Below, in pieces: positions 27,403 through 48,110 of a DNA stretch of 64,000 bases. Source of the stretch: Nitrospirota bacterium. Lineage in GTDB: Bacteria > Nitrospirota > UBA9217. A model generated the notes under the pieces. It saw only the letters and a program-made list of their open reading frames with translations. It searched no databases and had not been told where the DNA came from. The first letter of the stretch is position 1. Each line of letters starts with the position of its first letter. The position numbers were made by a program, and so were the translations under genes. The stretch is taken from assembly GCA_963749655.1 (NCBI GenBank), contig CAVVOB010000028.1:256001-320000 (forward strand). The letters run 5' to 3'.

Positions 27403-27494
27403 GTCTCAAGTGGGACCGGCTGCACATTGACGAATACAGCCGGTCCCCGATCTTTAGCATACAATAAATTAACGGCCACACCTTCTTTCGAAAA

Positions 27495-28369: not shown

Positions 28370-28749
28370 GCTGTCTTCAAGTGCAACGATGATGCCACGT
28401 CGTTTGGTCAGTGATGACATCAAGCAGCAAGGGCATCAACAGAAGGCCGGCCTCCTGCAATGGCTGATCAAAGACGCATAAACAGTTACAGCGCACTGAG
28501 GCAAAACGCCCCGTGTCGTGGGGAATTTTTCATCTATCTTCCAGATGAAGAAGTTCTCAAGTTCTGAATGCATGCCCGCACAGAGCGTTGTTCTGTTTCT
28601 CCGCAACCTGCTGTCTCCTTCGCCGCAGACGCAAACTCAATAACATCAGTACGATCGACCAAGACGAACCTCTTGGCCATTCCCGAAAGACCTATAAGGC
28701 AAAGACCTCGGCCTGACAGAGCGCATCTCTGCAATGTATGATTTATTGC

Positions 28750-28765
28750 TGGCATTGCAGTTGCA
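28750..28765 (+). promoter_or_regulatory. Sigma54 (-24/-12) promoter of the methyltransferase cluster
   Basis: TGGCATTGCAGTTGCA, i.e. GG-N10-GC with canonical TGGCA and TTGCA. Confidence 0.75.
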
Positions 28766-28780
28766 GAATACTGCATTGCA

Positions 28781-29113
28781 ATGAAAAACATCCTTCTCTG
28801 TTCCTCAAATCCCATTCTGACCAAGAACCTGTACGCTATCCTGCGCGACGCGGGCTTTACCGTGGAATCTATTGAACATCCTGCTTTTGCAGTACAGAGC
28901 GTGATGACCAAAAAATTCAACGCCGTTATCATCGACTCGGAGCCTTTCGGACTTTCGGCTGAAGACGCGGTCGAGATCATCAGGACCGTCGCTCCCGCGC
29001 TGCCGGTCCTGTTCGTGGGAGAGGATGCCCATGGCGCGATGCCTGCTGCGGAAAGGCCGCTCGATCTCGAAGAGTTGAAGCGAACGATCCGCACCATTGC
29101 TGTTAACGGCTGA
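28781..29113 (+). CDS. Small degenerate receiver-like protein
   Basis: Receiver-like pattern (NILL.., AVIIDS, PVLFVG, RPLDLEEL) lacking the N-terminal acidic pair. Confidence 0.65.
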   Translation: MKNILLCSSNPILTKNLYAILRDAGFTVESIEHPAFAVQSVMTKKFNAVIIDSEPFGLSAEDAVEIIRTVAPALPVLFVGEDAHGAMPAAERPLDLEELKRTIRTIAVNG

Positions 29114-29137
29114 ATAAAAAGCATGAAGGGAGAGACC

Positions 29138-30166: not shown

Positions 30167-30430
30167 TTGAAGCCATGGATAAAAAACAAAACTTGATTGG
30201 AACCACAGATGAACACGGGTGCGGTGAAGCCGCACGCACAGATAAAAAAACGCATCTTTCTCTTTAATGATTGACCGTGTGCGGCGAAGCCGCCTGTGGT
30301 CGATGACTTCTTTAAAAGGAGGTGACACAGTTCCTAGAAGCGAAAGGAGGTCGATACATTGGGTATCTTGGAAGAGTTGAAAAAACTGTTTTTCCGGTCG
30401 CAATCAGCAACCGGGCAAGGGGAGGCAAAA

Positions 30431-30874
30431 ATGGCTGACAAGAAAATGACGTTGGAAGAAGTGAACGAGTACATGAAGAAGCAGTGCGGTTTCGTGCCGA
30501 GGATGTTCCAGATCATCAACACCGTGACCCCGGAACCGGGCAGGACTTTCGCCGACTTCTATGCAAGCATCTTCGGCGACGGGGCACTCTCCCGCAAGGT
30601 GAAGGAGCTCATGTTCATGTCCGGCGGCGTCGCCTACTGCTCGCCGCGCTGCATCATTCACGTGATCCCGGCGATCAACGCCGGCGCGACCACGGGCGAG
30701 ATCTTCGAGGCCGCATCGGTCGGCATGATCCTCGCCGGCTTCGTGCCCGGCGGCCCCGGCATACCCTATGCCTTTGAATATGCCTTGAAGTGCCTTGACA
30801 TCGAGGCCAAGTTCCGCAAGGGCGAGAAGTGGGAATACCTGCCGCAGCCGAAGTTCGATCATGGCGTGTTTTAA
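30431..30874 (+). CDS. Carboxymuconolactone decarboxylase/AhpD-like protein
   Basis: GFVP, GALSRKVKELM, CSPRCIIH, AGAT.GEIFEA; RBS GGAGG. Confidence 0.8.
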   Translation: MADKKMTLEEVNEYMKKQCGFVPRMFQIINTVTPEPGRTFADFYASIFGDGALSRKVKELMFMSGGVAYCSPRCIIHVIPAINAGATTGEIFEAASVGMILAGFVPGGPGIPYAFEYALKCLDIEAKFRKGEKWEYLPQPKFDHGVF

Positions 30875-31069
30875 CTTTCATACAACGGGGGAGCGTTCTC
30901 GGACCTCCCCCGGTATTTTGGACTTATTAAACAATTCATCCAGCAAAAGCGGTTAACCGCAGAGAACGCAGAGGTCGCAGAGATGTCGAAAACATTGAGG
31001 CCGTGCTCTTCTCGGCGTTTCTGCAGAAAAAAAATAGGTCTATTCCTTGTCGTATGAAAAGGAGTCACG

Positions 31070-32017
31070 ATGTTTCGATTCAACACCGAACAAAAAGTCT
31101 TTTCTCTGGGCGGCATGAAGGTCGGCGGACAGCCGGCCGAGAACCCGCCGCTCCTGATCGCGTCCATGTTTCACAACAAGGACCGGATCGTCACGGACCG
31201 GAAGGGCAACTTCGACCGTGCGGCGGCAACCGCCCTGATCAAGAAGCAGGAAGAGCTCTCGGCCTCCACCGGCATCCCCTCCATGGTGGCCATGGTGGCG
31301 AACTCGCCCGAGGAGGCGAAGATCTACATCGACTTCTACCGAGAAACGACGTCCATGCCCTTCGGCATCGACATGTGGGTCGCGGAAAAACGCGCCCAGG
31401 CCACGGAATACGTCGCGAAGCTCGGCCTCCAGGACAAATTCCTCTACAACAGCATCACGCCCTGGGACAAGGACATCAAGGGCCAGGTGCAGAAGCTCAA
31501 GGACCTCGGGATCAAGCATGTCGTGGTCCAGGCTTTTGACGATACGGACCAGTCCCCCGCCGGCCGGCTCAAGTCGCTCGAGAACATTCTGAGTCAGGGC
31601 GCCGACTGCTTCGAGACCATCATCGTGGACACCTCGGTCATGAATCTGCCGGCAACGTCGTTCTCACTCGTCGCCAACCGCATGATCAAGGAGAAGCTGG
31701 GCCTCCCCTGCGGCGGCGCCTATTCGAACGGCACGCACATGTGGAAAGACGCGAAGACGATCTGGAGCCTGGACGGCTTCAAGGCCATGGACGCCGTGGT
31801 GCAGGGCATGGCCTCGGCGATCTGGAGCGACTTCAACTTCTACGGCCCTATCGTCACGGCGCCCCGGATCTTCCCGGCCGTGGCCGCGGCGCAGGTCCTG
31901 CTCTCGACGCTGGTGTACGACGAGACGAAGAAGATCTCGGAGAACGAGAACGTTCCGATCAGGAAATATTTTTCCGACTTCCTCGGCAAGCTGACCTCGG
32001 GAGCGGCGAGAAAGTAA
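31070..32017 (+). CDS. mtrH: MtrH-family pterin:corrinoid methyltransferase (MtrH/MtgA-like)
   Basis: MFRFNTEQKVF..GGMKVGGQP.ENPPLLIASMFH, YNSI, KLGLPCG, FYGPI..A..IFPAVA. Confidence 0.88.
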   Translation: MFRFNTEQKVFSLGGMKVGGQPAENPPLLIASMFHNKDRIVTDRKGNFDRAAATALIKKQEELSASTGIPSMVAMVANSPEEAKIYIDFYRETTSMPFGIDMWVAEKRAQATEYVAKLGLQDKFLYNSITPWDKDIKGQVQKLKDLGIKHVVVQAFDDTDQSPAGRLKSLENILSQGADCFETIIVDTSVMNLPATSFSLVANRMIKEKLGLPCGGAYSNGTHMWKDAKTIWSLDGFKAMDAVVQGMASAIWSDFNFYGPIVTAPRIFPAVAAAQVLLSTLVYDETKKISENENVPIRKYFSDFLGKLTSGAARK

Positions 32018-32025
32018 AAAAATCC

Positions 32026-32099
32026 GTGAGGAGTAAGGAGTGAGGCGTAAGGGGATGAATACCATCTCCTCACTCCTCACACCTAACTCCTTACTCATC
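32026..32099. repeat. Heptamer (GTGAGGA/TCCTCAC) inverted tandem repeat
   Basis: GTGAGGAGTAAGGAGTGAGGCGTAAGG ... CTCCTCACTCCTCACACCTAACTCCTTACTC. Confidence 0.8.
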
Positions 32100-32116
32100 G
32101 ATACTGAGGAGGAACC

Positions 32117-33136
32117 ATGAATTCACGAGAACGCGTGCTGAAGCTCTTCGCCGGCGAGGAAGTGGACCGGCCGCCCTGCTTCAGCGGCATGGGCAACGTG
32201 ACCACCGAAGGCCTGAAATCGCTGAACCAGAAGTTTGCGGCTACTCATCTGGACGCGAAGATGATGGCCGGGGCTGCGGCCTCGACCTACAAACTCTTTG
32301 GGTTCGAGTGCGGCGTGGCGCCCTTCGACCTCTGCATTGAGGCCGAAGCCCTGGGGTGCGAGATCAACGTCTATGCCCATTCCGAGGACCTGCTGTACCC
32401 CACGATCAAGAAAAAGCTCATCCACAGCGAAGCGGAGATGGAGATTGCCGTTCCCGCGGACTTCACGAAGCGCGGACGGGTGCCGCTCATGGTCGAGGCA
32501 CTCGGGCTCCTCAAGAAGGACATCGGCGGAAGCGCCGCCGTCGGCACCTACGTGCTCGGACCCTTCACGCTCGCGGGGCAGGTGATGGAACTGAACGACC
32601 TGCTGAAGCTGTCCTTCAAGAAGCCCGACAAGGTCGGCAAGCTGCTCGATACGCTCACCGGCGCCATCATCCAGACCGCGCGGGAATACCAGAAAGCCGG
32701 CGTCGACTACATCACGGTCCGCGAGATGGGGGCCACCTCGGACGTGCTTTCCCCCCGGGTGTTCAAGAGCCTGATCCTGCCCTATCTTAAGAAGATCTTC
32801 GAGGCCATTACCGTGCCAAGCGTGCTTCACATCTGCGGCAAGACGAACGACATCGTGCCGGCCATGGTCGAGAGCGGGGCCAAGGCGATCAGCGTGGACC
32901 AGAAGAACGATCTCGCTGAAACGCGCAAGAAACTCGGACCCAAGGCGCTCGTGTTCGGGAACTACGATCCCTACAATGTGCTGGTCGCCGGCACGCCGGA
33001 CCTGGTGCGCCAGACGATCAAAAAATGCATGGACGACGGTGCGAGCGCGGTTTGGCCCGGGTGCGACATCTGGCCCACGGTGCCGGCGGACAATTTCAAG
33101 GCAATGATGGATGAAGTCAACAATTACAGGAGGTAA
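32117..33136 (+). CDS. MtaA/CmuA-family methylcobamide:CoM-type methyltransferase, copy 2
   Basis: MNSRERVL, PFDLCIEAEALG, GRVP, GPFTLA, LHICG, PGCDI. Confidence 0.88.
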   Translation: MNSRERVLKLFAGEEVDRPPCFSGMGNVTTEGLKSLNQKFAATHLDAKMMAGAAASTYKLFGFECGVAPFDLCIEAEALGCEINVYAHSEDLLYPTIKKKLIHSEAEMEIAVPADFTKRGRVPLMVEALGLLKKDIGGSAAVGTYVLGPFTLAGQVMELNDLLKLSFKKPDKVGKLLDTLTGAIIQTAREYQKAGVDYITVREMGATSDVLSPRVFKSLILPYLKKIFEAITVPSVLHICGKTNDIVPAMVESGAKAISVDQKNDLAETRKKLGPKALVFGNYDPYNVLVAGTPDLVRQTIKKCMDDGASAVWPGCDIWPTVPADNFKAMMDEVNNYRR

Positions 33137-33140
33137 TCCG

Positions 33141-33829
<689 letters not shown>

Positions 33830-33833
<4 letters not shown>

Positions 33834-34495
33834 AAGAGGACCTGCGGAGCGAACTCCTGGAGCACGGCGCCGCGCTCGTGGGCATTGCCGGCCTGCGCGG
33901 CTACCTGAGCGGCGAGATAAGCCACCTGGACCGGGCGGTCTCCATTGCCGTCGACCGGCGGCTGAACGAAGACACCGTCGTCATCCTGGTGAAGCTCCAG
34001 AAGCGCGCGGTGCGCTTTCTCAAGTCCCGGGGGTACCGGACGCTGGCCATCCCGCCGGACTCGGACAGGAAGAAGAACACATTCATCTCGAAGCTCTACT
34101 CCCTGTTCAACCACAAGATGGCCGCCACGTCGGCGGGCCTGGGCTGGATCGGGAAGAACGGGCTCCTGATCAACCCTGAATACGGCCCGCGCCTGACGCT
34201 CGCTACGGTGCTGACCGATGCGCCGCTCGGGCCGGACCGCCCCGTAGAGCAATGCCTCTGCGGTCTGTGCACGCTCTGCAGGGACCACTGCCCTTCCCGG
34301 GCGATCACCGGCGCGGAGTGGTCCCGCACCAGACCCTTCACCGAACTGGTGAAGCTGTCGGAATGCAGGAGCCACAAGACGACAAAGAGGAAGACCGAGG
34401 GAAAGCCGAATTGCGGGTTATGCATCAACATTTGTCCCTTTGGGAGAAAAGAAGTAAATGCGGAATTCACCCTGCACGCACGCAAGCACTCGTAA
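33830..34495 (+). CDS. QueG-like 4Fe-4S dicluster protein
   Basis: HKMAA..AGLGWIGKN.LLI.PEYGPR, CGLCTLCRDHCP, CGLCINICP. Confidence 0.8.
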
Positions 34496-34630
34496 ACGCA
34501 GGGCACAAGCGGAATGCGGAAAAGCAAGATGTCATTTCCGCGAAGGCGGGAATCCGGGGTTTTCCTGATCTTCATCCGTGTCCATCAGTGTTCATCCGTG
34601 GTTTCATAAGTCCATTCTTGGAGGAATTGC

Positions 34631-36616
34631 ATGTCGAAGAAACACAAAGTCATATTCCAGCCCTCGGGCAGACGCGGCGAGGTTGAAGAGGGGCAGACCC
34701 TGCTCCAGGCCGCGCAGTCCCTGGGCGTTGATATCGAAGCGCTCTGCGGGAACAAGAAGGTCTGCGGCAAATGCAAGGTCCGCATCGAGGAAGGCTATTT
34801 CGAGAAGGACAACATCGACTCAGGCATGGCCCACATCTTCCCGCCCGTGCCGTCGCCCGATGAGATGAAGCACATCAAGCCCCAGGACGGGCCGGGGATC
34901 AGGCTCGCGTGCCAATGCGAGGTCCGGGGCGACGTGAAGGTCTTCGTGCCCGAACGTTCGCGGGCCGGCAAGCAGGTCGTCCGGAAGGCGGCCAAGGAGC
35001 TCACGATCAAGCTCGACCCCGCAGTCAAGAAATACAATGTCGCGCTCACAAAACCCTCCCTGCACGATATGACGACAGGAGACTGGGAGCGCGTGCTCAA
35101 GTCCCTGGAAGACAACTACGGCCTGAAGGGCCTGACCTTCGACTACCTCGTCTTGAAAGACCTCCAGGACACCCTGCGGAAGGGCGAATGGAATGCAACA
35201 GCCACGGTCTGGATGGACAAGGAGATCGTCAAGATCGAGCCGGGATTCGTCGAAGCAAGCTACGGCCTGGCCGTGGACATCGGCACCACCACCTGCGTGG
35301 GCTACCTCACGGACCTGAACACGGGCAAGGTGGTGAACACCGAATCCATGATGAATCCCCAGGTGCCCTACGGCGAGGACGTGATGTCGCGAATCACCTA
35401 CGCCATGAGCAATCCCGGCGTGGGCCTGGACACCATGCAGAAGGCGATCATCGAGGGCTTGAACGAGATCATCGAACGGGTTGTGACGGAAATCAATAAA
35501 AACGGTCCCCATCCCGGGTACGTCATCGACGACCTCACCATCGTGTTCAACACGGCCATGCACCATATCTTCCTGGGCCTGAATCCGGAGTACATCGGCC
35601 GATCGCCCTTCATTCCCGCGGTCCAGAACTCGCTGGACATCAAGGCACGCGACCTGGGCATCAGAATCAATCCCTCGGCCTACATCCATGTGCTTCCCAT
35701 CGAGGCCGGCTTCGTAGGCGCGGACAACGTCGGCGTCCTGATCGCCGAGGAACCCTACAACCAGGACGAGAACGTGCTGATCATCGATATCGGCACGAAC
35801 GGCGAGCTCCTCCTGGGCAACCGGAACAAGGTCTGCTCCACGTCCTGCGCAACGGGGCCCGCCTTCGAAGGCGCACAGATCAAGTTCGGCATGCGCGCGG
35901 CGCCGGGAGCCATCGAGACCGTGGAGATCGACCCCGTGACCAAGGACCCCCGCTACAAGGTCATCGGCAAAGCCGACTGGTCCTCCCATATCGAGAAAAT
36001 GAACGTCAAGGGCCTCTGCGGGTCCGCCATCATCCAGGTCGTGGCCGAAATGTTCAAGGCCGGCATCATCGACAAGTCCGGACGGTTCGTGCCGGACCTG
36101 GGCACTCCGCGGGTCCGAAGGGACGCTGACGGTAAGCCCGAATACGTGCTTGCCTGGGCAAGCGAGACCTCCATCGGCCAGGACGTGACCATCACCCAGG
36201 GCGACGTGCGCGCCCTCCAGCTGGCCAAAGGCGCTCTCTATACCGGGGCCAAGCTCATGATGAAACGGCTGGGCATAACCACCCTCGACAAGGTGATCCT
36301 GGCAGGCGCTTTCGGGAGCCACATCGACCGTGAGGCGTCGCTCCTGCTGGGTATGTTCCCGGACTGCAGCATGGACAAGATCTACGCCGTGGGCAACGCC
36401 GCGGGCGACGGTTCGCGCATGGCGCTTTTGAACCGCGGGAAACGAAAGGAAGCCAACGAACGGGCCCGGTGGGTCGAGTTCGTCGAGATCGCCACGGACC
36501 CGGCCTTCGAGAAAGAGTTCATGCAGGCCATGCACATCCCGCATATGAAGGACAAGTTCCCGAACCTGAAGGCGCTGCTCGAGAAATCGAAGAGTCTTGT
36601 GGAGATAAAGGCGTGA
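34631..36616 (+). CDS. ASKHA-type ATP-dependent reductive activator of corrinoid proteins (RACE/RamA-like)
   Basis: N-terminal 2Fe-2S (CG...CGKC, RLACQ), AVDIGTTT, NPQ..GEDVMSRI, FVGAD, DIGTNGE, ATGPAFEG, LAGAFG, GNAAG. Confidence 0.93.
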   Translation: MSKKHKVIFQPSGRRGEVEEGQTLLQAAQSLGVDIEALCGNKKVCGKCKVRIEEGYFEKDNIDSGMAHIFPPVPSPDEMKHIKPQDGPGIRLACQCEVRGDVKVFVPERSRAGKQVVRKAAKELTIKLDPAVKKYNVALTKPSLHDMTTGDWERVLKSLEDNYGLKGLTFDYLVLKDLQDTLRKGEWNATATVWMDKEIVKIEPGFVEASYGLAVDIGTTTCVGYLTDLNTGKVVNTESMMNPQVPYGEDVMSRITYAMSNPGVGLDTMQKAIIEGLNEIIERVVTEINKNGPHPGYVIDDLTIVFNTAMHHIFLGLNPEYIGRSPFIPAVQNSLDIKARDLGIRINPSAYIHVLPIEAGFVGADNVGVLIAEEPYNQDENVLIIDIGTNGELLLGNRNKVCSTSCATGPAFEGAQIKFGMRAAPGAIETVEIDPVTKDPRYKVIGKADWSSHIEKMNVKGLCGSAIIQVVAEMFKAGIIDKSGRFVPDLGTPRVRRDADGKPEYVLAWASETSIGQDVTITQGDVRALQLAKGALYTGAKLMMKRLGITTLDKVILAGAFGSHIDREASLLLGMFPDCSMDKIYAVGNAAGDGSRMALLNRGKRKEANERARWVEFVEIATDPAFEKEFMQAMHIPHMKDKFPNLKALLEKSKSLVEIKA

Positions 36617-36908
36617 CACAAATGCGGAATTCGGAATGCGGAGTGCGGAATAGAAAAACAGGATTTGTAACCACGGATAAACACGGATAAGAACAAGCCC
36701 TTCACCCGGTTAAATGATTTTCACTTGTGTTCATCTGTGTGTCCGGCGCAGCCGGACCCGTGGTTGCCAAAGTCGTTCGTTATGTGTTTTAAAGGTTACC
36801 GACGGAACCCCTTCCGGCGGTAATGTGGATGCAGGGGCGGGAAGGTTGACCTTTCCCCGGGCCTTTCCGCCCCTTCTTCCTTAAACAGATCGAAAAGGAA
36901 ACAGGTTC

Positions 36909-37226
36909 ATGACAACAGTCGTCGTACACTCGGGAGCCTGCGGGTTCACGGTCACGATCACGGCAAAAAAAGGACAGGCAGGCAAGATCGTCCTTTCGCT
37001 GGACACGGACTGCGAAATGGTGAAGAAAATGCTCGCAGACATCGCGGTCCTCGACCGCTTCGCGCCGCTCGCGGGATTCACGACCAACCCCGTGCACCAG
37101 GCTGCGGCAAAACATTTGAAGCATGCGGCCTGCGCGGTCCCTTCCGGGATCCTGAAGGCGATCGAGGTGGAAGCCGGACTCAATGTTGCAAAAGACGCGA
37201 CCATCGTGTTTGTCACGGAGAAGTGA
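36909..37226 (+). CDS. Small Cys/His protein (DUF6951-like)
   Basis: V.SGACGFT, TDC, HAACAVPSGILKAIEVEAGL. Confidence 0.7.
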   Translation: MTTVVVHSGACGFTVTITAKKGQAGKIVLSLDTDCEMVKKMLADIAVLDRFAPLAGFTTNPVHQAAAKHLKHAACAVPSGILKAIEVEAGLNVAKDATIVFVTEK

Positions 37227-37337
37227 CGCTACCGGACGGTTCCCCAGTTGACGATTCGAATCCCGCTCCCTGCTCATTCTCAAGGGTTGTTCCTGTGATG
37301 TGTTATACTTTTTACAGCAAGTCAGGAATGAGGTGTC

Positions 37338-38024
37338 ATGGGAAAATTACTCGTTGTTGCCGCGTACACGGCACTCGCGGCTTTCTGGACGCGCTTTGGA
37401 ATGCACTTTCTGCTGTGGCAGCGCGCCGCGCGCCGGTCAGGAGAATCCTTCTTTCCGAAGCCGAAGCCGCGTTCAAAGGCCTGCGCGCAAACAGCGCTCG
37501 ACCTTCTGTTCTTCGGCAGGCTCCTGGTGCGGAACCCGGCCCTGTGGCTGGGAGAATGGGTGTTTCACTTCACCTTTCTTCTGGTCCTGCTCCGGCATCT
37601 TCGGTACTTCCTGAACCCGGTCCCCTCCTGGGTTTGGAGCATGCAAACGCCGGGATTGATCGCCGGGTATATTCTTCCCCTGTCCCTGCTGTACATTCTC
37701 GCTGTCCGGTTCCTGTCAAAACGGGAAAAATACTCCTCACCAGCCAACGTGTTTCTGCTGGCAGTGGTGCTGATCATCAGCACCCTGGGCGTGTTGATGC
37801 ACGGGTGGCTGAAGCCGAACCTGGTGGACGTAAAACTCTTCGTCCTCGGCCTCGCTGTCCTGAAGCCTGTCGCGGCCCCGGCAAGTCCGTGGTTCTGGGC
37901 CCACTTCCTGCTGGTCCTGGTTCTTGCGGTCTTCGTGCCCACGCACATCTTCTCCGCGCCGCTGGTGATGTGGGAGGCGAGGAAGCGGGAGCAGGCGCTG
38001 CGTTTGGTGATGCATGAAAAATAA
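37338..38024 (+). CDS. NarI/DsrM/HdrE-like membrane b-type cytochrome subunit
   Basis: About five TM helices with His pairs (VFH..LLRHLRYF; AHFLL..PTH). Confidence 0.8.
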   Translation: MGKLLVVAAYTALAAFWTRFGMHFLLWQRAARRSGESFFPKPKPRSKACAQTALDLLFFGRLLVRNPALWLGEWVFHFTFLLVLLRHLRYFLNPVPSWVWSMQTPGLIAGYILPLSLLYILAVRFLSKREKYSSPANVFLLAVVLIISTLGVLMHGWLKPNLVDVKLFVLGLAVLKPVAAPASPWFWAHFLLVLVLAVFVPTHIFSAPLVMWEARKREQALRLVMHEK

Positions 38025-38161
38025 TGAAAGAGCGAAAGATTCAAGACCCGGAGATTTACCACAGAGAGCACAGAGATAAAGCAGCTGATCTCGATTTTCT
38101 CTGTGAGTCTCTGTGGTTAATAAAGATATTAATCCGGCAATCTTGCCGACTGTATGTTTTT

Positions 38162-39365
38162 ATGAATAAGAAACGTTCATACAGCCGAGGAGCTTTCCGC
38201 GGCCCAGATCATCGAGATCGACGCCTGCACGCAGTGCGGCGAGTGCCTCAAGCACTGCCCGGTGCAGGACGTGACCGGCAATTCTACGGTGTCGCCGCCC
38301 GAGAAGATCCGCATGTTCCGGGAGTTCCTCCGCTCGACGGACGGGCTCAAGGCGCGGCTCTTCGGACCGGCTGACGCGGACAAAAAGCTCCTCGACGACT
38401 TCACGAAAGCGGTCTACGAGTGCACGACCTGCGGCGCCTGCGGCCAGAACTGCCCGGTCGGCATCTTCACCCAGCGCCTCTGGCCCATGCTCAGGAAAGA
38501 AATGGTGAAGCGGGGGCTCGGACCCCTCGGCGTCCAGGCAAACATGCCTGCCGCGATCATGAAGAGCGGCAACCCCTACGACAAGCCTGCGTCGGAGCGG
38601 TATGCGCCCTGGTTCCCGGAGCAGGTGAAAGTCGCCGAGAGATCGGAGATCGCCTACTACGCAGGATGCACCGGCGCATACGAAGCGCAGCCCATGGTCA
38701 GGGCGGACGTGCAGGTCCTCCATGCGATCAACGAGCCCTTTACCATGCTGCCCGCCGAGGAAGAGGTGTGCTGCGGCTTTCCGCTCTTCATCACCGGACA
38801 GCACGACCAGCTCAAGGACCTGGTGACGCGGCTGGTTGAAGGATACCGGAGCCGCGGCGTCAGAACGCTCGTCTGTTCCTGCCCCTGCTGCGTGAACATC
38901 ATGACCAGGGACTGGCCCCTGTTCTACGGCAGGGAGCTGCCCTTCAGGATACGGCACATCACGCAATATGTATCCGACGCGATCAGCGCGGGCAAACTCA
39001 GATTCTCGCAGGAGCTGAAGGAACGGATCATCTACCACGATCCCTGCTATCTCTCGCGCGGCGTGGGCGTTATCGAAGAACCGCGGGCCGTCCTGAGGAG
39101 CATCCCCGGTTTAACGCTCCTCGAATTCGAGCGCTCTGGCCTCAACTCCCGATGCTGCGGGTCCGGAGGGGCAGCGAGAAAGGTCTTTCACGAAAATGCC
39201 ATTGCCATGGGCAGGCTGACCATCGACGAGGCAGTAGCCAAGAAGGCTGACCGTTTGATCCTGTCCTGTCCGGCATGCTACGCCAAAGTGAACGAGGCCA
39301 TGAAAGGGCACAAGAACCAGATCCGGATCACGGACATCATGGAGCTGGTGAGCGGATTGATTTAG
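38162..39365 (+). CDS. HdrD/GlpC-like Fe-S oxidoreductase with two CCG domains; one-base indel just after the ATG
   Basis: CTQCGECLKHC and CTTCGACGQNC; YYAGC..CCG..CPCC; YHDPC..CCG..CPAC. Confidence 0.88.
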
Positions 39366-39520
39366 ATTCAGGAGCACGCTTTGCCACGAATTAACGCGAA
39401 TTTGCACGAATGGACAAAAAATAGAACCCCTGTCAGGCTTGAGGGTTGCTCTCTTCGTGCTGATGTCTTATAGAGTTGGGAAGCGGTTGATTCGAAATTG
39501 TCCGGCATTGAATTCGATCA

Positions 39521-39597
39521 GTCATTCCTGCGAAAGCAGGGATCCAGGTTCCCTCACGAAATGCCGCTGGATTCCGGGTCAAGCCCGGAATGACGGC
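39521..39597. repeat. REP-like palindromic element
   Basis: GTCATTCCTGCGAAAGCAGGGATCCAG ... CTGGATTCCGGGTCAAGCCCGGAATGAC; related half-copy at about 34531-34556. Confidence 0.8.
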
Positions 39598-39611
39598 GTG
39601 AAGAAAAGAGT

Positions 39612-40871
39612 ATGAGCCACTTTTCGATAAAATGCAGTAAGTGCGGCAAGATCCTCGAGAACGCCTTCTGCGCCTTCTGCGAGCACTGCAAGGACGCGCT
39701 TCTCGTGACGGATTATCACGACCGGCGTTTCGCTGAGCAGGACCGGCCGGGCGTCTGGCGGTTCAACTGGCTGCCGATTCATGAGGGCCCGGTGCCGCAG
39801 ACCGGACCGTTGGTGTACCGCTCGCAGGGACTTGCCGCGTCGCTCGGCCTCGAGAACCTCTTCATCGCCTTCAACGGTTACTGGCCGGAGAAGGGCGCCT
39901 TGATCGAGACCTGCACGTTCAAGGAGTTCGAGGCCGCTATCGTGCTCCAGAACGCGCGGGAGAACGGCGTCGAGGGCCTGATCGTGGCTTCGGCCGGAAA
40001 CACCGCGCGGGCCTTTGCCCACCTGTCCGCAGTCACGGGCTTCCCGATCGTTATCGTCGTGCCGCGCATGTGCATCATGGAAATGTGGTACCTGGAACGG
40101 CAGTCCGTGATCCCGACGCTTGCCGTGGCAGACGGCGACTATGCTGACTCCATCGACGTGGCAAAGCGGATCGCCATGGCTACGGGGTATCCCTTTGAAG
40201 GCGGCGTGAAGAACATTGCGAAAAGAGACGGCCTCGGCATCGTGATGCTCGAAGCGGTCTCGAAGATCGGAAGGCTGCCGGACCATTATGTCCAGGCCGT
40301 GGGCAGCGGCACCGGAGCTGTGGGCGGATGGGAGATGGCTGAGCGTTTCTTGAAAGACGGGCGATACGGTTCGCGTCTGCCGATTCTGCACCTGGGCCAA
40401 AACCTGCCTTTTGCTCCCATGCTTCATGCCTGGGAAAAAGGGAGCAGGACCCTGGCCCCTGAAGATCTTGATCCGGCGCTCATCTCCCGGATCACCACCC
40501 GCGTGCTGTCCACGCGGTATCCTGCGTACTCGGTCCAGGGCGGAGTGTACGATGCGCTCTCGGCATCGAACGGCAGGATGTACGGCGTTGAGAACGATGC
40601 GGTCTACAGCGGCATGGATCTGTTCCTCAAGACCGAAGGCATGGACATTGTTCCTGCCTCAGGCGTTGCCGTGGCAGTTCTCGAGGAAGCCCTGCGCAGG
40701 GGCGCTATCAGCAGGAGCGAAACGATTCTTCTGAACATCACCGGCGGAGGAGAAGCGAGGCTGCGGCAGGACCGGAGGACCTTCGCTGTTGTGCCGAAAT
40801 ACATCTCCAAAAACATCACTGATAAAGAGATCGAGGAGCTCTTGTGCAACAGCCTGAAGAAAAGCTCATAG
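39612..40871 (+). CDS. Cysteate synthase (PLP-dependent, threonine-synthase-like)
   Basis: GYWPEKGA.I.TCTFKE.EA, ASAGNTARAF, GDY.D.I, EGG.KN.A.RDG, YVQAVGSGTG, QNLPF.PM; closely resembles Methanosarcina cysteate synthase as recalled. Confidence 0.9.
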   Translation: MSHFSIKCSKCGKILENAFCAFCEHCKDALLVTDYHDRRFAEQDRPGVWRFNWLPIHEGPVPQTGPLVYRSQGLAASLGLENLFIAFNGYWPEKGALIETCTFKEFEAAIVLQNARENGVEGLIVASAGNTARAFAHLSAVTGFPIVIVVPRMCIMEMWYLERQSVIPTLAVADGDYADSIDVAKRIAMATGYPFEGGVKNIAKRDGLGIVMLEAVSKIGRLPDHYVQAVGSGTGAVGGWEMAERFLKDGRYGSRLPILHLGQNLPFAPMLHAWEKGSRTLAPEDLDPALISRITTRVLSTRYPAYSVQGGVYDALSASNGRMYGVENDAVYSGMDLFLKTEGMDIVPASGVAVAVLEEALRRGAISRSETILLNITGGGEARLRQDRRTFAVVPKYISKNITDKEIEELLCNSLKKSS

Positions 40872-42047
40872 CCGTTCTGAAAAAGAACAGCGTCGACTTC
40901 ACGGCGTCGCTTCCTTGCGAGAAGATCAAAACGCTCCTCGAAATGGTCGGCGGCTCTTTCCCTCATGTTCCGCTGACGCGCGAGGAGGAGGGTGTGGGCA
41001 TCTGCGCGGGTGCTGCGCTCGCGGGCAAACGGCCGGCCCTGTTCGTCCAGAGCTCGGGCCTGGGCAATATGATCAATGCCTTGCTGTCTCTCACCCAGTT
41101 TTACGAACTTCCGCTTGCGATCTTTGTGAGCAGGCGCGGTGTATACAAAGAAAAGATCGAGGCCCAGCTCCCCATGGGACAGCGGCTGGGCGGCATCCTT
41201 TCCGGCGCAGGCATCGGTTGGACCGAGATCAATACGGCAAACGACCTTGCAAAGGTAGAGCAGGAACTGCCGGAGGTGTATTCGAAAAATCTCGTTCATG
41301 CGTTTTTAATGAGCCCGGCGGTGTGGGAAGGGTCCCAGTGCGGAACGACGGAGAAACAAGGCGGAATTCGGAATTCCCGCGCACTCCGTGCATCCGCACT
41401 CGTAAACGCTGGGGACAGGTCGGAATGCGGAAGTGAAACCGCAAAAGCCGGTGCAGACTCCTCACTCCGTACTCCTCACTCCTCACTGCCGCAACTCACC
41501 CGCTACGACCTCATCAAGATCATAGCGCCCTATCTGGAGAACAACGTTGTCGTGAGCAACCTCGGCTGGCCTTCGAAAGAACTCTATGCGATCAAGCACC
41601 AGCCGTCGAACTTCTACATGCTCGGGAGCATGGGGATGGCTAACGCCTATCGGCCTGGGTATCGCGCTTTCGACGAAGAAGAAAGTTTTCGTGCTCGACG
41701 GCGACGGGAGCCTCTTGATGAATCCCGGCACGCTCGCAACAGCAGCCGGACAAGGGCCGAAAAACCTGACCATCCTCGCCATCGACAACGGCGCCTACGG
41801 GTCCACGGGAAATCAGCCCACTCTTGCCGCAAGCTGCGTCGACCTGGAGCAGGTGGCACAAGGGTTCGGGATCAGGAATACAGTGAAGGTTTCGGAAGAG
41901 AAAGAAATCAACGAAGCGATGAAACAGCAACGGTCAGGATTTACCTTCATTCACATTCTGGCGGTGCCGGGGAACAAGGACGTGCCGAACATTCCGGTTC
42001 ACCACCTGGAAATCAAGAAGCAGGTGCAGGAGTTCTTGCGGGGTTAA
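40844..42047 (+). CDS. comDE: Fused sulfopyruvate decarboxylase ComD-ComE (TPP); frameshift at about 41640
   Basis: LPC, LTREEEGVGICAGA, QSSGLGN.INAL.SL, AQLPMG (alpha); SNLG.PSKEL, NFYMLGSMG, DGDGSLLMN, DNGAYGSTGNQ (beta). Confidence 0.88.
41361..41432 (+). repeat. 72-bp dispersed element, in frame inside comDE
   Basis: Three mismatches to 60246-60317 by eye; diverged copy at 34460-34521. Confidence 0.9.
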
Positions 42048-42099
42048 TAAAGCAGACCGTTAGCAGACTGCTTCGCTGTTGTCGAAAGTCATCGCGGCA

Positions 42100-42510
42100 T
42101 CACTCATTGGCTGTGACCATCAGCCGTTCCCTGTCCTTGAACAGCATATTGCATTTATTGTTCAGCAGATTTACCACGACGCCCTTGCCGAAGGTCTCGT
42201 GATTGACAATGTCACCGACCCGGTATTTCGAAGCCCTGCTGTAATCGCGCTCTTTTCCCTTCGCCTCTGCAAGACTGGCTGCCCAGACGAGCTCCGCTGT
42301 CGCCGCTTCGTCGACGACTTTTTTAGCCCTTGCCTTATGGACCTTCTGAGCGTCAATCTGAACCCTGAATTTGTGCATACTGCCGCAGGTCTTGCATCTC
42401 ACTTTTACGATCGTCTCTCTAGCCATCATCATGATGGTATGATCGCTGTTCGCCTTGCACTTCCCGCAATAGGAATCGATGTTTTGACCAGAATTAAATT
42501 TCTCCACCAT
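42100..42510 (-). CDS. Conserved hypothetical protein with two CxxC pairs
   Basis: CGKCK..HTI, VRCKTCGS.H, Y.VGD.V.H..FG.GVV. Confidence 0.7.
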   Translation of the reverse strand: MVEKFNSGQNIDSYCGKCKANSDHTIMMMARETIVKVRCKTCGSMHKFRVQIDAQKVHKARAKKVVDEAATAELVWAASLAEAKGKERDYSRASKYRVGDIVNHETFGKGVVVNLLNNKCNMLFKDRERLMVTANE

Positions 42511-42717
42511 ACCGGCTCTCCCTGTAATGCCAAAATTTGCATAAAGAGGCTTCTGTGGGACAGTGGCAGCATACACCCTGTGGTCTGGAAAAGCTGTACC
42601 TCTTTTTACGATAATGCAAGGCAAAGGGAAGGAAGGGGCGACGTCGCAATCCAAGAGTGTATTATATTGAACGCGCGCGTGAGGAGCGTGCTTTTCGCGA
42701 CTCACTCGACGCGCTCG

Positions 42718-43227
42718 TTAATTTCTAATTTCAACTAAAACATCTTGCGGGAAGTTCATCTGATATGACCCAAACTCCACAGCTTTGACTCTTTCCCGTC
42801 CAACCTCAAGCTCGACGGTTTCAATTTGGCCACTGTACATATGCACGAACACAAAGAGACTTTTCGGTGTGTTTGCGACTGATGCTGTTAACCAATTTAG
42901 AAAATCGTCACGGAAGCCCTCACGTCTCACCTTCATGTTCTTTTCGTGATCGTCCAGCGCTCTTTGAATTTTGCTTTCAGACCAGTTCTTTTTCTTATAT
43001 TTATGCCGAAGTGCTTCTTTTGCTCTTTTTTCTTCGCCCGGTCTAGCAGGCGCGTAAAGATCACAAGAACACATTGCCGTAATAATGGCGAGGGAATCAT
43101 AATCTTTTGGCAAAAGGTTGGTAATGGCCTGATTAGTAATCCTAAGTGGCTGCAATCCCTTGGGCAACACCGCTAGAATCGAATTTGCCGTCGTTTTAGG
43201 AAATGCGACTGTAATGTAATAGCACAT
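42718..43227 (-). CDS. Hypothetical protein (AT-richer DNA)
   Basis: 169-aa ORF with RBS-like AAGGAAG; MCSCDLY. Confidence 0.6.
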   Translation of the reverse strand: MCYYITVAFPKTTANSILAVLPKGLQPLRITNQAITNLLPKDYDSLAIITAMCSCDLYAPARPGEEKRAKEALRHKYKKKNWSESKIQRALDDHEKNMKVRREGFRDDFLNWLTASVANTPKSLFVFVHMYSGQIETVELEVGRERVKAVEFGSYQMNFPQDVLVEIRN

Positions 43228-43320
43228 AGACTTCCTTTAAAAATTAACCAGTTATTATCGAGACGGAAAAAGCATCTATGCTTTTCGTGCGCATATCAAG
43301 TACCAGGGAGCACACCACCA

Positions 43321-44106
43321 TCACAATCCCCGGCTCGCTGCCCAGCCCAGAATCCGATCTGCAACGACCTGCCAGCCCGGCTCCAGCATCATGTCATGCG
43401 CCATGTTGGGAAAGATCTCTGCTTCTCTTCCATAGGCATGTGCCGTTGCCTTTTGTTCCGCTACGGAAAAGATACGGTCATTTTCAGCTGCGAGAACCAG
43501 CATCGGGGTCTTGATGTTTTCAGGGCGCGGAAGATCGAAAAGGAGCGTCTCGAGCTGCATGCGGAAGGACTCTTGCTGCAAACGCGAAAAATGTCGTGCG
43601 ATCTCGGCCGGAGGAACCTGCTGAGAGAAGAAAGAATCGCGCGCAAGTTCCTGCGTTCGTATTGCCTCCTGCAAGCTCATAAACACCTGCGATCTTATAA
43701 ATGGCCCGGGATGCCGCAGGGCGTAGCGGACGGCAAAGCCGATCGTCCCTGATACGGGGATCGTGGCCAGGAGAACACAGGCCGCGGCAGAGTTCTTTTC
43801 CAGATATTTTTGCGCCACGTACCCACCCATGGAATGACCGACGATCATCGGCGGCCGGGGGAGAGATTCCGCCACCTTTGCTACATCGGCAACGTAGCCA
43901 TGTGCAGCGCTGTGCCAACGAATGTTTTCCCGCCCTTCACTCGCGCCATGGCCGCGCAGGCTGACAGCGTAGGTGGCATACCCGTGCTGAGCAAAATAGG
44001 GCTGGAATTTCTCCCAGCACCATGCACCGTGCCAGGCGCCGTGCACAAAGAGAATCGGTGTCGGACGGGTCGCGTTCGTTGTATCGGCAATAACTTCGAG
44101 TTTCAT
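43321..44106 (-). CDS. Alpha/beta-fold hydrolase
   Basis: FVHGAWHGAWCW, LRGHG, GHSMGG, AHDMML. Confidence 0.9.
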   Translation of the reverse strand: MKLEVIADTTNATRPTPILFVHGAWHGAWCWEKFQPYFAQHGYATYAVSLRGHGASEGRENIRWHSAAHGYVADVAKVAESLPRPPMIVGHSMGGYVAQKYLEKNSAAACVLLATIPVSGTIGFAVRYALRHPGPFIRSQVFMSLQEAIRTQELARDSFFSQQVPPAEIARHFSRLQQESFRMQLETLLFDLPRPENIKTPMLVLAAENDRIFSVAEQKATAHAYGREAEIFPNMAHDMMLEPGWQVVADRILGWAASRGL

Positions 44107-44575: not shown

Positions 44576-45184
44576 CTACAGTTTCCCGGTCTTCTGGTAC
44601 TCCTGCACATAGACCTTGATGGCCCGAAGGATGATCCAGTCCAGGGTAACGCTGTTGTCCTGGGCGATCCGGACGAGGGCATCGATCAGTTCCTTGTCTA
44701 TTGCAGGCATGCCCTGTGACGGTGTCGAAGCTTCGGGCTCGGGCGAGGATGCCGTTGAAGGCACGCTCTGTTCTGCGCCGGGATTACGCTTCACATGCTC
44801 GCGCCGAAGTTGTTCCATCAAGTTATGAACATCGCCGCTCATGATCGCCTGCCGTACGTCATCGGGTACGTCGCCAGCCGGTGGTGTCTCTTGCTGCTGT
44901 GGTGAAGGCGGCGACTGTTCCGCGGCAGGCGATGGCGGCATTGCCATACCGGGCCCCGGCATCATGCCGGTCATGCCCATCATCATGTTTGCCAGGTTCC
45001 TGGCGTATTCATTGTCCGGCATTTCTTCCTTCAGAAACTCGTCGAGCTTTCCCTCTGCCATTGCTTGCGCCATGCGGTCGGCTGTCAGGTTGCCTGCGTC
45101 TTCCGGCTGTTCGAATCCTTTTTTTCTGCCAAAGGCTGTTGTCGGCGGTTTGGGAAGCGGTTTATCTTTGTGGGATTTCCTCAC
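44576..45184 (-). CDS. Hypothetical Pro/Met-rich protein with possible C-terminal ribbon-helix-helix
   Basis: GTG start after GGAAAGGAG; C-terminal IDKELIDAL..IA..V.LDWII.RAI..YV. Confidence 0.6.
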   Translation of the reverse strand: MRKSHKDKPLPKPPTTAFGRKKGFEQPEDAGNLTADRMAQAMAEGKLDEFLKEEMPDNEYARNLANMMMGMTGMMPGPGMAMPPSPAAEQSPPSPQQQETPPAGDVPDDVRQAIMSGDVHNLMEQLRREHVKRNPGAEQSVPSTASSPEPEASTPSQGMPAIDKELIDALVRIAQDNSVTLDWIILRAIKVYVQEYQKTGKL

Positions 45185-45201
45185 TGATCTCCTTTCCCGT
45201 A

Positions 45202-45903
45202 CTACCTGAAGTACGCTGCGAAATAGGGCTTGAGCGCCTTCAACGTGTCGTCTGCAACGAGCGGCACCATGGACGCAAAACAGTCGAGGTTGACGAGTGC
45301 GTTGATGTTCGCGTCCTTCTTGGCCGCATCGCGCAAGCGGACAGCGAAATCGCGGTTCACCTTGCCCACCTCGGCATAGACCTTGGTCAGGCCGTCGAGC
45401 CGCCACTCGGCGTGCTGGTTTTCCTGGTTTTTGTAATACTGGACCAAAAGATACATCGAGACCATCCTGAAAACCGTCTCGTCGAGCGACGCGAAGGGCA
45501 GGTGGAACCGAACCATGGGTTTGAGGTGCTCCATGACGGGGCAGCCGCTCGTGGTCATGATGATGCCGATGAGCGGGCTCAGGCCGAGCTGGATGGTGGT
45601 CTCCTTGGCGAAAATGCGCTCCTCCGTCGTCACGGTCACGACGACCTCTTCGTGGGAGAGCGTGTCCTTGAACTCCTCGGCAATGTCCCCGAAGTTCAGG
45701 GCCACGGGACAATAAATGGTCTTCTTCACATCAAGGGGGCAATTCTCGCATTGTTTGTGCGTGAGCAGGGCCCAGAGGGGCTGGTGATTGTTCGTTTGAT
45801 CCCTCTGCAGGGCAAGCGTGTCGCGGTCCAGGCTGACGATGAACTTCTTGCTCGTACCTTTTTTGAATTTGTAGGCATACTCGATTACAATTGGCGCGGC
45901 CAT
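45202..45903 (-). CDS. DUF6901-like protein
   Basis: W..L...QC..CPL....CP, M.TSGCP...LKPM.RFHLPFA. Confidence 0.7.
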   Translation of the reverse strand: MAAPIVIEYAYKFKKGTSKKFIVSLDRDTLALQRDQTNNHQPLWALLTHKQCENCPLDVKKTIYCPVALNFGDIAEEFKDTLSHEEVVVTVTTEERIFAKETTIQLGLSPLIGIIMTTSGCPVMEHLKPMVRFHLPFASLDETVFRMVSMYLLVQYYKNQENQHAEWRLDGLTKVYAEVGKVNRDFAVRLRDAAKKDANINALVNLDCFASMVPLVADDTLKALKPYFAAYFR

Positions 45904-46563: not shown

Positions 46564-47210
46564 ATGCAGGACCTTTCCCCCTTCGATCATCACCGGGATG
46601 AATATGAGGCGTGGTTCGTGCGCCATGCCGCGGTCTACCGATCCGAGCTGTCGGCAATCAGGGCCCTGATGCCGGACCACGGCAGGGGGCTCGAGATCGG
46701 CGTCGGAAGCGGTCTCTTTGCGGGACCGCTCGGCATGCAGGCCGGCGTCGATCCATTCGCCAAGGATGCTCGAACTGGCCCGACAACGGGGCATCGACGT
46801 TGTCCAGGGCGTTGCAGAATCACTTCCTTTCCGGACCAATCCTTCGATCTCGCGCTCATGGTCACTACGTCTGTTTCCTCGATGACATCGACCTTGCTTT
46901 CAGCGAGGCCTTCCGCGTACTGAAAAATAATAAAGGCGTCTTTCTGGTCGGCTTCGTGGACAAGGCAAGCGCCATCGGCCGGTCCTACGAGGAGAAGAAG
47001 GACAAGAGCCTTTTCTACTGCAACGCGGAATTCTATACGGTCCCTGACCTGCTTGCCCATCTCAGCCTTGCCGGCTTCATAAACTTCCGCATTGTCCAGA
47101 CACTCTTTCATTCCCTTTCCGAGAGCACAAAACAAGAACCGATTCGCGAGGGACACGGGGAAGGATCTTTTATCGTGATCAAGGCGGAGAAGGAGGGTGA
47201 CAGCCCATGA
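46564..47210 (+). CDS. Class I SAM-dependent methyltransferase; frameshifted
   Basis: LEIGVGSG, GVDP, F.D.SFD, CFLDD, EAFRVLK. Confidence 0.8.
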
Positions 47211-48110
47211 CTAGAGCCGGAAACCGCAGAGCGAAAGTCGCACTCGTCAGGACAGCAGACCGCGAAACCGGCGTTCCTGCGGTGATCGATCCGCTCAAGA
47301 TCGATGCCTTCCAGGGAAAGAACGTACTGCTCAAGCCAAACTTCAATACCGACGACCCGTATCCCGGCTCAACCCACAACGACACCCTGCGGTACCTGAT
47401 CAATCGACTCCGGACCCTGGGCGCGGGCAGGATCACCGTGGCAGAACGAAGCGGACCTGCTGATACGAGCGAAGTGATCACGTCAAAGGGCGTGGACAAG
47501 CTCTGCAAGGAGCTGAGCGTTGATCTCCTCAACTTCGAGGACCTTCCGCCTGACGCATGGAAGCGGTAAAGCCGGAGCACTGCACGTGGAAAACAGGCTT
47601 CGACATTGCCCGGCCCGTGCTCGACGCCGATTCTGTCGTAACAACTGCTGCCTCAAGACCCACGGGTACGGCGTCGTCTTCACGATATCCCTGAAACTTG
47701 CCGTTGGCATCACCCACAAGCGCAACATGGCCGAACTGCACTCCTCAGGTGGGAACATGGGCAGGCTGATCGCCGAGATCAACCAGGCTTATGCACCGTC
47801 TCTCATCCTCCTCGACGCCATCGAAGCTTTCGTGGACCGCGGCCCCATGACGGGCCCCCGCAAGCGGGCTGATGTCCTTGTCGCAAAATCGGACCGGACC
47901 GCCATCGGCGCGGTCGGCCTCGCGATCCTGCAACATCTCGGCAGCAACGCGGCCATCATGGGAACGAAGATCTTCGAGCACGACCAGCTCCGCCGCGCTG
48001 TGGAGCTCGGTCTCGGCATATCAGACCCGCAGCAGATCGAATTCGTGACTGGTGACAAGGAAAGCCGGAAGTATGCGGAAAAGCTGAAAGAGATCCTTAG
48101 AAGGGGATGA
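47207..48110 (+). CDS. DUF362 family protein; frameshifted
   Basis: VLLKPNFN, STH, VAERSG, CLKTH, SLKLAVG, GP. Confidence 0.78.

Follow-up and report, generated by a model that had tools for sequence, protein, structure and literature searches.

Methanogens and archaea that oxidise alkanes are regarded as the typical owners of coenzyme M (CoM), together with a few aerobic, alkene-oxidising bacteria in which an unrelated pathway produces it; the locus described here has genes of the archaeal route in an anaerobic, sulfur-metabolizing bacterium. The window, a stretch of 64,000 nucleotides (C28:256001-320000), belongs to a metagenome-assembled genome (MAG; here G000) of 4.27 Mb in 39 contigs that is 86.6% complete and 5.8% contaminated, and its organism is an uncultured anaerobic member of the Nitrospirota, sulfate-reducer-like and equipped with DsrAB and acetyl-CoA synthase. 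At 39612-42047 it carries a gene for cysteate synthase (CS) overlapping a gene for a sulfopyruvate decarboxylase of the fused ComD-ComE type (ComDE), and this pair closes a conserved 13-gene plus-strand cluster (28781-42047) in which gaps are short or genes overlap. We are dealing with a real and conserved version, in bacteria, of the phosphoserine route by which archaea proceed towards CoM, residing in a module that resembles CoM-using enzymes. It is apparently unpublished: in full-text literature searches, neither CS/ComDE nor the synthesis of CoM turned up as a subject for Nitrospirota. The NCBI and JGI pipelines already label these bacterial proteins 'cysteate synthase'. A previous inspection of the letters alone (the sequence-only reading) had picked out the CS-ComDE pair; its account contained neither the interruption of the ComDE frame nor the surrounding 13 genes, from which most can be learnt.

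As far as curated models and conserved residues can show, the two genes encode CS and ComDE. CS (EC 2.5.1.76; 39612-40871, plus strand, 419 aa) scores 470.7 bits with TIGR03844 (cut-off 324.9) and is the single match above cut-off in the whole genome. The lysine that binds pyridoxal phosphate, K104, is invariant in all 81 aligned rows (73 CS and 8 threonine synthases, ThrC), 84 columns deviate in no more than one of the 73 CS rows, and 49 of those differ from the ThrC majority; among the columns separating the two families is a WPE insert, found as WPEKGA in the window. Both the catalytic lysine and the CS-specific columns are common to bacterial and archaeal CS, and the closest non-bacterial relatives are archaeal, with 42-49% identity. 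ComDE starts with GTG at 40844, 28 nt before the CS stop, with GAGGAG 6-11 nt upstream, and an overlap of 25-28 nt was present in all nine Nitrospirota relatives examined. Its first piece (40844-41641, plus strand) comprises the ComD domain (TIGR03845, 180.2 bits, cut-off 147.95) and, behind a linker, the initial 40 residues of ComE (TIGR03846, 48 bits, residues 220-259), and its second piece (41643-42047, plus strand) the remaining ComE with the GDG...N motif for thiamine diphosphate (TIGR03846, 161.9 bits; PF02775, 63.7 bits), 42047 being indeed the true ComE stop. The split copy thus yields 48.0 and 161.9 bits for ComE against a cut-off of 221.5. All four intact relatives exceed the ComD cut-off (174.9-212.8 bits), and three of the four lie just above that for ComE (226.7, 216.3, 221.9 and 222.5 bits). 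A CS gene overlapping a single-chain ComD-ComE, as had been proposed, is therefore correct for CS, for the overlap and for the fused type of gene, but ComDE is not one open frame in the window. The arrangement is far beyond chance because it recurs in 63 bacterial loci.

These loci stem from a scan of one genome per species that returned 380 CS relatives, the best 80 of which were kept (63 with bacterial and 17 with archaeal labels). Almost all bacterial ones are labelled Nitrospirota/Thermodesulfovibrionales, alongside one 'Betaproteobacteria', one 'Rokuibacteriota' and one unclassified entry. Where a bacterial locus extends far enough upstream, the genes beside CS on the same strand include an HdrD-like gene directly upstream of CS in 49 of 56 cases, a DUF6951 gene (48/51), a RACo-type activase (44/47), a DsrM-like gene (43/52), a corrinoid protein (CP; 36/42), the second of two MtaA-like methyltransferases of the URO-D family (U2; 35/40), an MtrH-like gene (30/36) and an AhpD/CMD-like gene (26/34). 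The cluster is kept down to 61% CS identity; exceptions are L018 and L019, without the DsrM/HdrD pair, and L049-L052 and L058, with CS-ComDE and no HdrD-like gene. In L033, the DsrM-like gene (its product matching PF02665), the HdrD-like gene, CS and ComDE sit behind unrelated genes, and the tightest unit is therefore the Hdr-like pair plus CS-ComDE. Of 401 genomes sampled across the phylum, 67 encode CS above cut-off, and these represent 35 of 162 genera; within the organism's own family it occurs in 36 of 63 other genomes, and a U2 orthologue in 39 of 64 when the present one is included. Cross-tabulation of the 64 genomes gives 35 with both, 23 with neither, two with CS only and four with U2 only. 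Five of the six discordant genomes were fetched, the sixth being G232: in four of them the cluster runs off a contig end and in one CS is heavily frameshifted. Presence and absence of CS and U2 also vary together within three genera (g2, g4 and g10), the related genomes not being independent of one another. The 13-gene block is thus conserved and co-inherited.

Outside the bacteria, three loci of Hydrothermarchaeota, which are non-methanogenic archaea, have the same gene types beside CS-ComDE. The shared set comprises ten of them, namely U1 (the first URO-D-family methyltransferase), U2, CP, RACo, MtrH, CMD, DUF6951, HdrD-like, CS and ComDE; locus L068 carries everything in this list from U1 to the HdrD-like gene, and parts of the set are found on the Hydrothermarchaeota-like metagenome contigs L137, L150 and L185. 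Loci of Methanoperedens and Methanosarcinales hold CS-ComDE only. In 80 diverse metagenome CS loci, ComD adjoins CS in 43, and Hdr-like or methyltransferase genes occur only on Nitrospirota-like or Hydrothermarchaeota-like contigs. A CS tree was rooted with the eight threonine synthases, the archaeal sample being 16 rows from the best 80 loci. All 57 bacterial rows form one clade (SH-aLRT 94), and bacteria, Hydrothermarchaeota and other archaea meet in a trichotomy. A single transfer of CS between the domains, as in the earlier suggestion of horizontal acquisition, fits this topology, but its direction is not shown by a trichotomy. CS also occurs in further bacteria, as exemplified by a Phycisphaerae-labelled protein of 43% identity, and a metagenome scan seeded on the latter returned nothing closer than 48% to the seed. 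Independently, we noted a 62-member cluster (P0151, P0280-P0293) of 670-aa archaeal proteins with Thermoplasmatota and Euryarchaeota labels in which, judged by the names of its members, CS is apparently fused to a part resembling phosphoadenosine phosphosulfate (PAPS) reductase. Such a fusion, if true, would couple sulfite production with sulfite use.

Neighbouring genes in the block, which is all on the plus strand, resemble CoM-using enzymes in their predicted products. U1 (29123-30166), MtaA/CmuA-like, matches PF01208 with 204.6 bits and TIGR01463 with 188.1 bits (below the cut-off of 235.4) and shows the His-Cys-Cys zinc motif HICG...PGCD. U2 (32117-33136), an MtaA-like methylcobamide:thiol methyltransferase by its models, passes NF004889 (265.5 bits, cut-off 244) and TIGR01463 (244.1 bits, cut-off 235.4) and aligns with MtaA of M. 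mazei (4ay7) with E=5.4e-45, the HICG and PGC zinc ligands being in register. Neither protein attains the equivalog models for MtaA and MtbA, and both keep the H-x-C...C zinc site, a feature that divides S-/Se-methyltransferases from O-demethylases according to Kountz and Balskus (PMC10418091). An MtrH-family methyl-pterin:corrinoid methyltransferase (31070-32017; PF02007, 184.4 bits; NF002142, 329.2 bits, cut-off 287; MtgA model 158 bits, below cut-off) lies between them. They are followed by the B12-binding methyl-carrier protein CP (33111-33833; PF02310, PF02607; TIGR02370, 202.5 bits, below the cut-off of 215.3) and the RACo-type ATP-dependent corrinoid reductive activase (34631-36616; PF14574, PF17651, PF17650, PF00111; AcsV model 474 bits, below the cut-off of 800). 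Directly ahead of CS come a DsrM/HdrE/NarI-like membrane subunit (37338-38024; DsrM model NF038037, 65.7 bits, E=3.8e-18, below cut-off) and an HdrD/DsrK/TfrB-like protein with two CCG domains (38162-39365; PF02754 in two stretches, PF13183; TfrB model 173 bits, below cut-off), which in relatives is an open reading frame (ORF) of 399-453 aa starting with MKNKRSF... Together they display the HdrDE/DsrMK architecture, i.e., two CCG domains and an Fe-S motif beside a NarI-like membrane subunit, and no curated equivalog cut-off (DsrK, TfrB) is reached by the HdrD-like protein.

How does this compare with known systems? Excerpts of PMC12068725 describe the phosphoserine-dependent 'type 2' CoM pathway of M. 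acetivorans, encoded by MA3297 (cs), MA3298 (fused comDE) and MA3299 (methanogenesis marker protein 16, MMP16/ComF). The Nitrospirota pair agrees with it in having CS and a fused ComDE adjacent on the same strand and matching the same curated models, and probably in leaving transamination to a general enzyme. It differs in its bacterial host, in the lack of Mcr and of MMP16 beside the pair or in the genome, in the HdrDE-like pair and corrinoid methyltransferase set that precede it, and in a CS only 42-49% identical to the archaeal copies. The genes overlap by 25-28 nt in Nitrospirota versus -6 to +7 nt in four archaeal loci, and in the Methanosarcinales genome G407 MMP16 adjoins CS, whereas the Nitrospirota pair is without it. 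The U2 match to MtaA, the corrinoid protein and the reductive activase recall the MtaA/MtbA/MtsA and RamA systems of Methanosarcina; in contrast to these soluble systems, no MtaB/MttB-type substrate partner was seen in the cluster, an MtrH-like protein is included and the activase is of the RACo type. HdrED is likewise a NarI-like membrane subunit with a CCG protein, yet the HdrD-like protein fits best to TfrB/DsrK models, below every cut-off. Mto-type methoxy:pterin systems, as Kurth et al. are said to have described them, combine a URO-D-family enzyme, a corrinoid protein, an MtrH-like enzyme and an activase, as does the Nitrospirota block; here, however, a zinc site of the thiol type is kept in both URO-D proteins, and CS-ComDE and an Hdr-like pair are linked to the set. 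Transfer of S- or Se-methyl groups, to which we liken the present case, has been proposed for the Type 1 mlp clusters of anaerobic bacteria, which lack a pterin methyltransferase, and the text of that preprint contains no mention of cysteate, sulfopyruvate, MtrH or Nitrospir (Kountz and Balskus, PMC10418091). Xanthobacter autotrophicus is also a bacterium that makes CoM, but its Xcb pathway, in the excerpts of PMC9457059, uses unrelated enzymes, starts from phosphoenolpyruvate via ComA and belongs to the alkene/epoxide metabolism of aerobes.

On balance, we lean towards a reading in which the CS-ComDE route would lead to CoM or a close C2 sulfonate thiol that is used by the methyl-transfer and Hdr-like module. 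Going by family membership, CS would form L-cysteate from O-phosphoserine and sulfite, the latter occurring as an intermediate when the organism metabolizes sulfur, sulfopyruvate would arise from cysteate through one of nine candidates for a general aminotransferase (class I/II, PF00155 matches in G000), and the fused ComDE, translationally coupled to CS, would convert sulfopyruvate to sulfoacetaldehyde. From here on gene linkage is the guide. Sulfoacetaldehyde may become CoM or a very similar two-carbon sulfonate thiol, with thiolation achieved by the sulfide that is plentiful or by an enzyme encoded in the cluster that is not orthologous to ComF, for which the HdrD-like/DsrM-like pair is the best candidate because it accompanies CS-ComDE also in loci where the methyltransferase genes lie apart. 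Such a thiol would then serve U1 and U2 as two MtaA-like zinc thiol-methyltransferases; with CP, RACo and the MtrH-like protein these could move methyl groups between thiol/thioether and a pterin (tetrahydrofolate) tied to the Wood-Ljungdahl pathway, and the HdrDE-like pair might keep the thiol reduced or reduce its disulfide with quinol. DsrA (560 bits) and acetyl-CoA synthase (AcsB) are encoded, the former in 14 and the latter in all of the 15 genomes of the genus, so that sulfite and a methyl-pterin pathway are available, and a role on the scale of a cofactor fits a sulfite-consuming enzyme in a sulfite-respiring organism. As a separate observation, a ThiF-family gene (PF00899, 273.9 bits) directly follows ComDE in the Rokuibacteriota-labelled locus L051 (L051:11154-11954, plus strand); a sulfur-carrier activating enzyme of this family could hint at another route of sulfoacetaldehyde thiolation.

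Several points weigh against the formation of a CoM-like thiol. URO-D-family protein, corrinoid protein, MtrH-like protein and RACo together are the standard bacterial make-up for methyl:tetrahydrofolate chemistry and need no CoM. U1, CP, RACo and the DsrM-like and HdrD-like proteins stay below the curated cut-offs of the models that name them. MtaA takes many thiols, as stated in excerpts of PMC13618148, and homology therefore leaves the thiol unnamed; residues with which MtaA binds the CoM sulfonate, sought as a specificity marker for U1 and U2, were not found in the literature searched. For ComF (MMP16, TIGR03287), the best match in G000 reaches 30 bits and covers the ferredoxin part only, and COG1900 (PF01837) gave no match in this genome, which is 86.6% complete. 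Neither was found in four other cluster-bearing Nitrospirota, one of them a complete chromosome, nor in three Hydrothermarchaeota genomes, and the positive controls M. jannaschii, M. acetivorans and G407 matched. McrA (PF02249) was not found in G000, G001, G005 and G409, i.e., in the window's genome, a complete relative and two Hydrothermarchaeota, and the only well-understood sink for methyl-CoM is therefore missing. Finally, none of the seven read runs listed for the window DNA is recorded as RNA, and among the four that were compared with it the best-matching one, X1 (share 0.28), has no contig across 41448-41783, the region of the ComDE frameshift.

The lack of ComF is weak evidence against CoM in the light of two archaeal cases. 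An M. acetivorans strain without MMP16 is a CoM auxotroph only if sulfide is lacking, and it grows without CoM when sulfide is given (excerpts of PMC12068725), and the 3.3 Mb genome G406 of a Candidatus Methanoperedens (locus L075), the completeness of which is not established, contains McrA and CS-ComDE, and neither MMP16 nor PF01837 was matched there. In the Methanoperedens group, too, CoM synthesis may end in a step not yet described. The genome search that had been suggested for the aminotransferase and ComF gave the nine general candidates for the former and did not find the latter. What remains of the proposal of an archaeal-type route to CoM or another C2 sulfonate in bacteria is backed by CS and ComD above their equivalog cut-offs, by closest non-bacterial relatives that are archaeal and by CoM-enzyme-like neighbours, but comes without ComF/COG1900. 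That other CoM supply genes might stand beside the same enzymes was not supported for ComA in the phylum sample. ComA (PF02679) occurs in 23 of 401 genomes, has no match in G000, and in 12 fetched loci has no U1, U2, CP or MtrH nearby; one of the 12 has DUF6951-DsrM-HdrD within 9 kb. In that context we observed that L205 (G334:C38:7500-27400) holds a second DUF6951, DsrM-like and HdrD-like set without CS-ComDE, about 7 kb from ComA (phosphosulfolactate synthase), CS being located elsewhere in G334.

The alternative that survives best would have sulfoacetaldehyde turned into another C2 sulfonate (taurine, isethionate, sulfoacetate) or a different sulfonated metabolite, and the methyltransferases would then constitute an ordinary methyl-sulfide, methyl-selenide or methoxy:tetrahydrofolate system without CoM. 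The failure to find ComF/COG1900 and Mcr in the genomes searched speaks for it, as does the proposal, in PMC10418091, that related MtaA-like clusters of Firmicutes act on methyl-sulfur or methyl-selenium compounds without CoM. The AhpD-like protein of the block weakly matches selenoprotein-linked families (E ~1e-5), and about half of the diverse metagenome loci have CS without adjacent ComDE, so CS has uses besides CoM. Yet this alternative leaves unexplained why, within one family, genomes acquire or lose CS-ComDE jointly with the genes for the thiol-methyltransferases, why the same gene set recurs in Hydrothermarchaeota and why an Hdr-type reductase is fixed beside CS-ComDE. Furthermore, Xsc was above cut-off in none of the 15 genomes of the genus, and a sulfonate on the scale of an osmolyte seems unlikely, the best-matching runs being labelled freshwater sediment or wetland. 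Taken together, we regard this alternative as unlikely.

A more far-reaching version of the reading that a CoM-like thiol is formed can be put forward tentatively, as a possibility about which we are ourselves in some doubt. Nitrospirota would make CoM without ComF and use it outside methanogenesis, as would the Hydrothermarchaeota sharing the module; the soluble MtaA-like/corrinoid/MtrH-like system would be a cytoplasmic counterpart of Mtr joining methyl-thioethers or methyl-CoM to the Wood-Ljungdahl pathway, and the DsrM/HdrD-like pair would act either as a quinol-driven CoM synthase (reductive thiolation of sulfoacetaldehyde) or as a CoM-disulfide reductase coupling the thiol to the membrane quinone pool. 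In the excerpts of PMC9326234 and PMC6081815, papers on Nitrospirota MAGs, MtaA is named only as a methylotrophy marker, and Carr et al., on finding that Hydrothermarchaeota have mtrH but not mcr, asked whether methyl-CoM might have a different fate (excerpts of PMC6775978). The archaeal route is here found in widespread sulfur-cycling bacteria of sediments and groundwater, and the gene set is defined for an uncharacterised corrinoid methyl-transfer metabolism in sulfate-reducing Nitrospirota. Should the reading be true, CoM or a close analogue would be a methyl or redox carrier without methane formation, a new enzyme or a sulfide-driven step would stand in for ComF, with a bearing on the completion of CoM in archaea without MMP16, and CS/ComDE genes in metagenomes would be unusable as markers of methanogens.

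As to the interruption of ComDE, DNA comparison with 13 relatives locates one extra base at about 41642 that splits the frame. At this site the relatives read ...ATGGGCATGGC(C/A)ACGCC(C/A)ATCGGC..., corresponding to M-G-M-A-T-P-I-G, and intact ComDE proteins (14 ORFs of relatives) align over it in two frames. An ORF of 452 aa (40844-42202) was rejected as the gene; it is the first frame continuing into nonsense. In 53 of 57 bacterial loci with room downstream of CS, the fused ORF is intact (at least 365 aa), and the four broken copies all belong to one MAG label series (4 of 16 versus 0 of 41 others). Further frame changes affect the HdrD-like gene (near 38180, about six codons past the ATG), a DUF362 gene (47207-48110, plus strand) and positions near 51090 and near 19120. 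The DUF362 gene consists of two overlapping ORFs (47207-47569 and 47520-48110) that match halves of PF04015, a probable assembly indel, and thrC of this genome (C39:13400-14800, minus strand) is spread over three frames within 1.2 kb, the strongest sign of frequent single-base indels. Contigs of the read runs X2 and X4 end at 41639-41640 and must come from relatives, as they are only 90-95% alike to the window. Since other indels are present in this MAG, even in thrC, and the fused gene is intact in the great majority of relatives, the break is very probably an assembly indel rather than real. A truly broken ComDE, i.e., a recent pseudogene in a pathway decaying in this genome, would agree with the split frame, with an HdrD-like gene that is out of frame as well and with the lack of reads obtained over the site; it is rendered improbable by the two halves, which are still 65-80% identical to relatives and free of further stops, by the scatter of frame changes over unrelated genes and by the confinement of broken copies to a single MAG series.

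The notion that the genes are misnamed, one encoding a paralogue of threonine synthase and the other a phosphonopyruvate decarboxylase that serves to make phosphonates, draws on the evolution of CS from threonine synthase, with weak matches to ThrC models (86 bits at most, cut-off 303), and on 200.8-213.5 bits of the phosphonopyruvate decarboxylase model TIGR03297 with four intact ComDE relatives, but it is highly improbable, as none of these four passes the cut-off of 312.5, the window pieces reach 88.5 and 99 bits, CS and ComD are well over their own cut-offs and a branch with 100% support parts the CS rows from the eight ThrC rows, so that the names originally given to both genes stand.

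Among the other genes of the block, the first encodes a stand-alone response-regulator receiver (28781-29113, plus strand; PF00072, 25.2 bits, under the gathering score of 30.2) that is kept before U1 in L018, L019 and L056. The AhpD/CMD-like protein (30431-30874, plus strand; PF02627, 26.8 bits), the ORF of which opens with TTG at 30359 and has its first ATG at 30431, is the most conserved of the block, with 78-94% identity in most relatives and 53-65% in Hydrothermarchaeota, and its nearest Atlas clusters belong to the AhpD family. A protein with two [4Fe-4S] clusters (33830-34495, plus strand) is similar to the ferredoxin part of reductive dehalogenases and QueG (PF13484, 34 bits; TIGR02486, 73 bits, and TIGR00276, 62 bits, both below cut-off). 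The DUF6951 protein (36909-37226, plus strand) matches PF22263 with 98.6 bits, and the term DUF6951 was not found in a full-text literature search. Atlas look-ups for the AhpD-like and DUF6951 proteins gave family names only, with hints of relatives in Chloroflexota and Thermodesulfobacteriota. Two further ORFs were rejected: one of 452 aa on the minus strand (32123-33481) is a shadow of the plus-strand U2 and corrinoid protein genes, and one at 37223-38017 proved to be in the wrong frame once that of the DsrM-like gene had been found. Counts from a promoter/terminator scan of 28000-43000 did not exceed those of shuffled sequences (5 versus 4.0; 16 versus 15.5) and thus say nothing about operon structure.

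Just upstream of the cluster, a CobW/COG0523-type GTPase is encoded on the minus strand (27783-28352) and kept in L018 and L019; this protein could deliver zinc, as a chaperone, to the MtaA-like enzymes, which depend on that metal. The GC content dips to 0.48-0.52 at 24001-28000, where a response regulator with an AraC-type helix-turn-helix domain (25138-25917) and a 348-aa ORF without family matches are located. Downstream, the region 42079-44106 (GC about 0.50 versus 0.58) contains three minus-strand ORFs (201 aa, 169 aa and an alpha/beta hydrolase) and is followed by a minus-strand gene at 44576-45712 for a protein of 378 aa without Pfam or NCBIfam match, which occurs with 40-64% identity and convergent to ComDE in most Nitrospirota loci. 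Because this gene directly follows ComDE in many relatives, 42079-44106 looks like an insertion.

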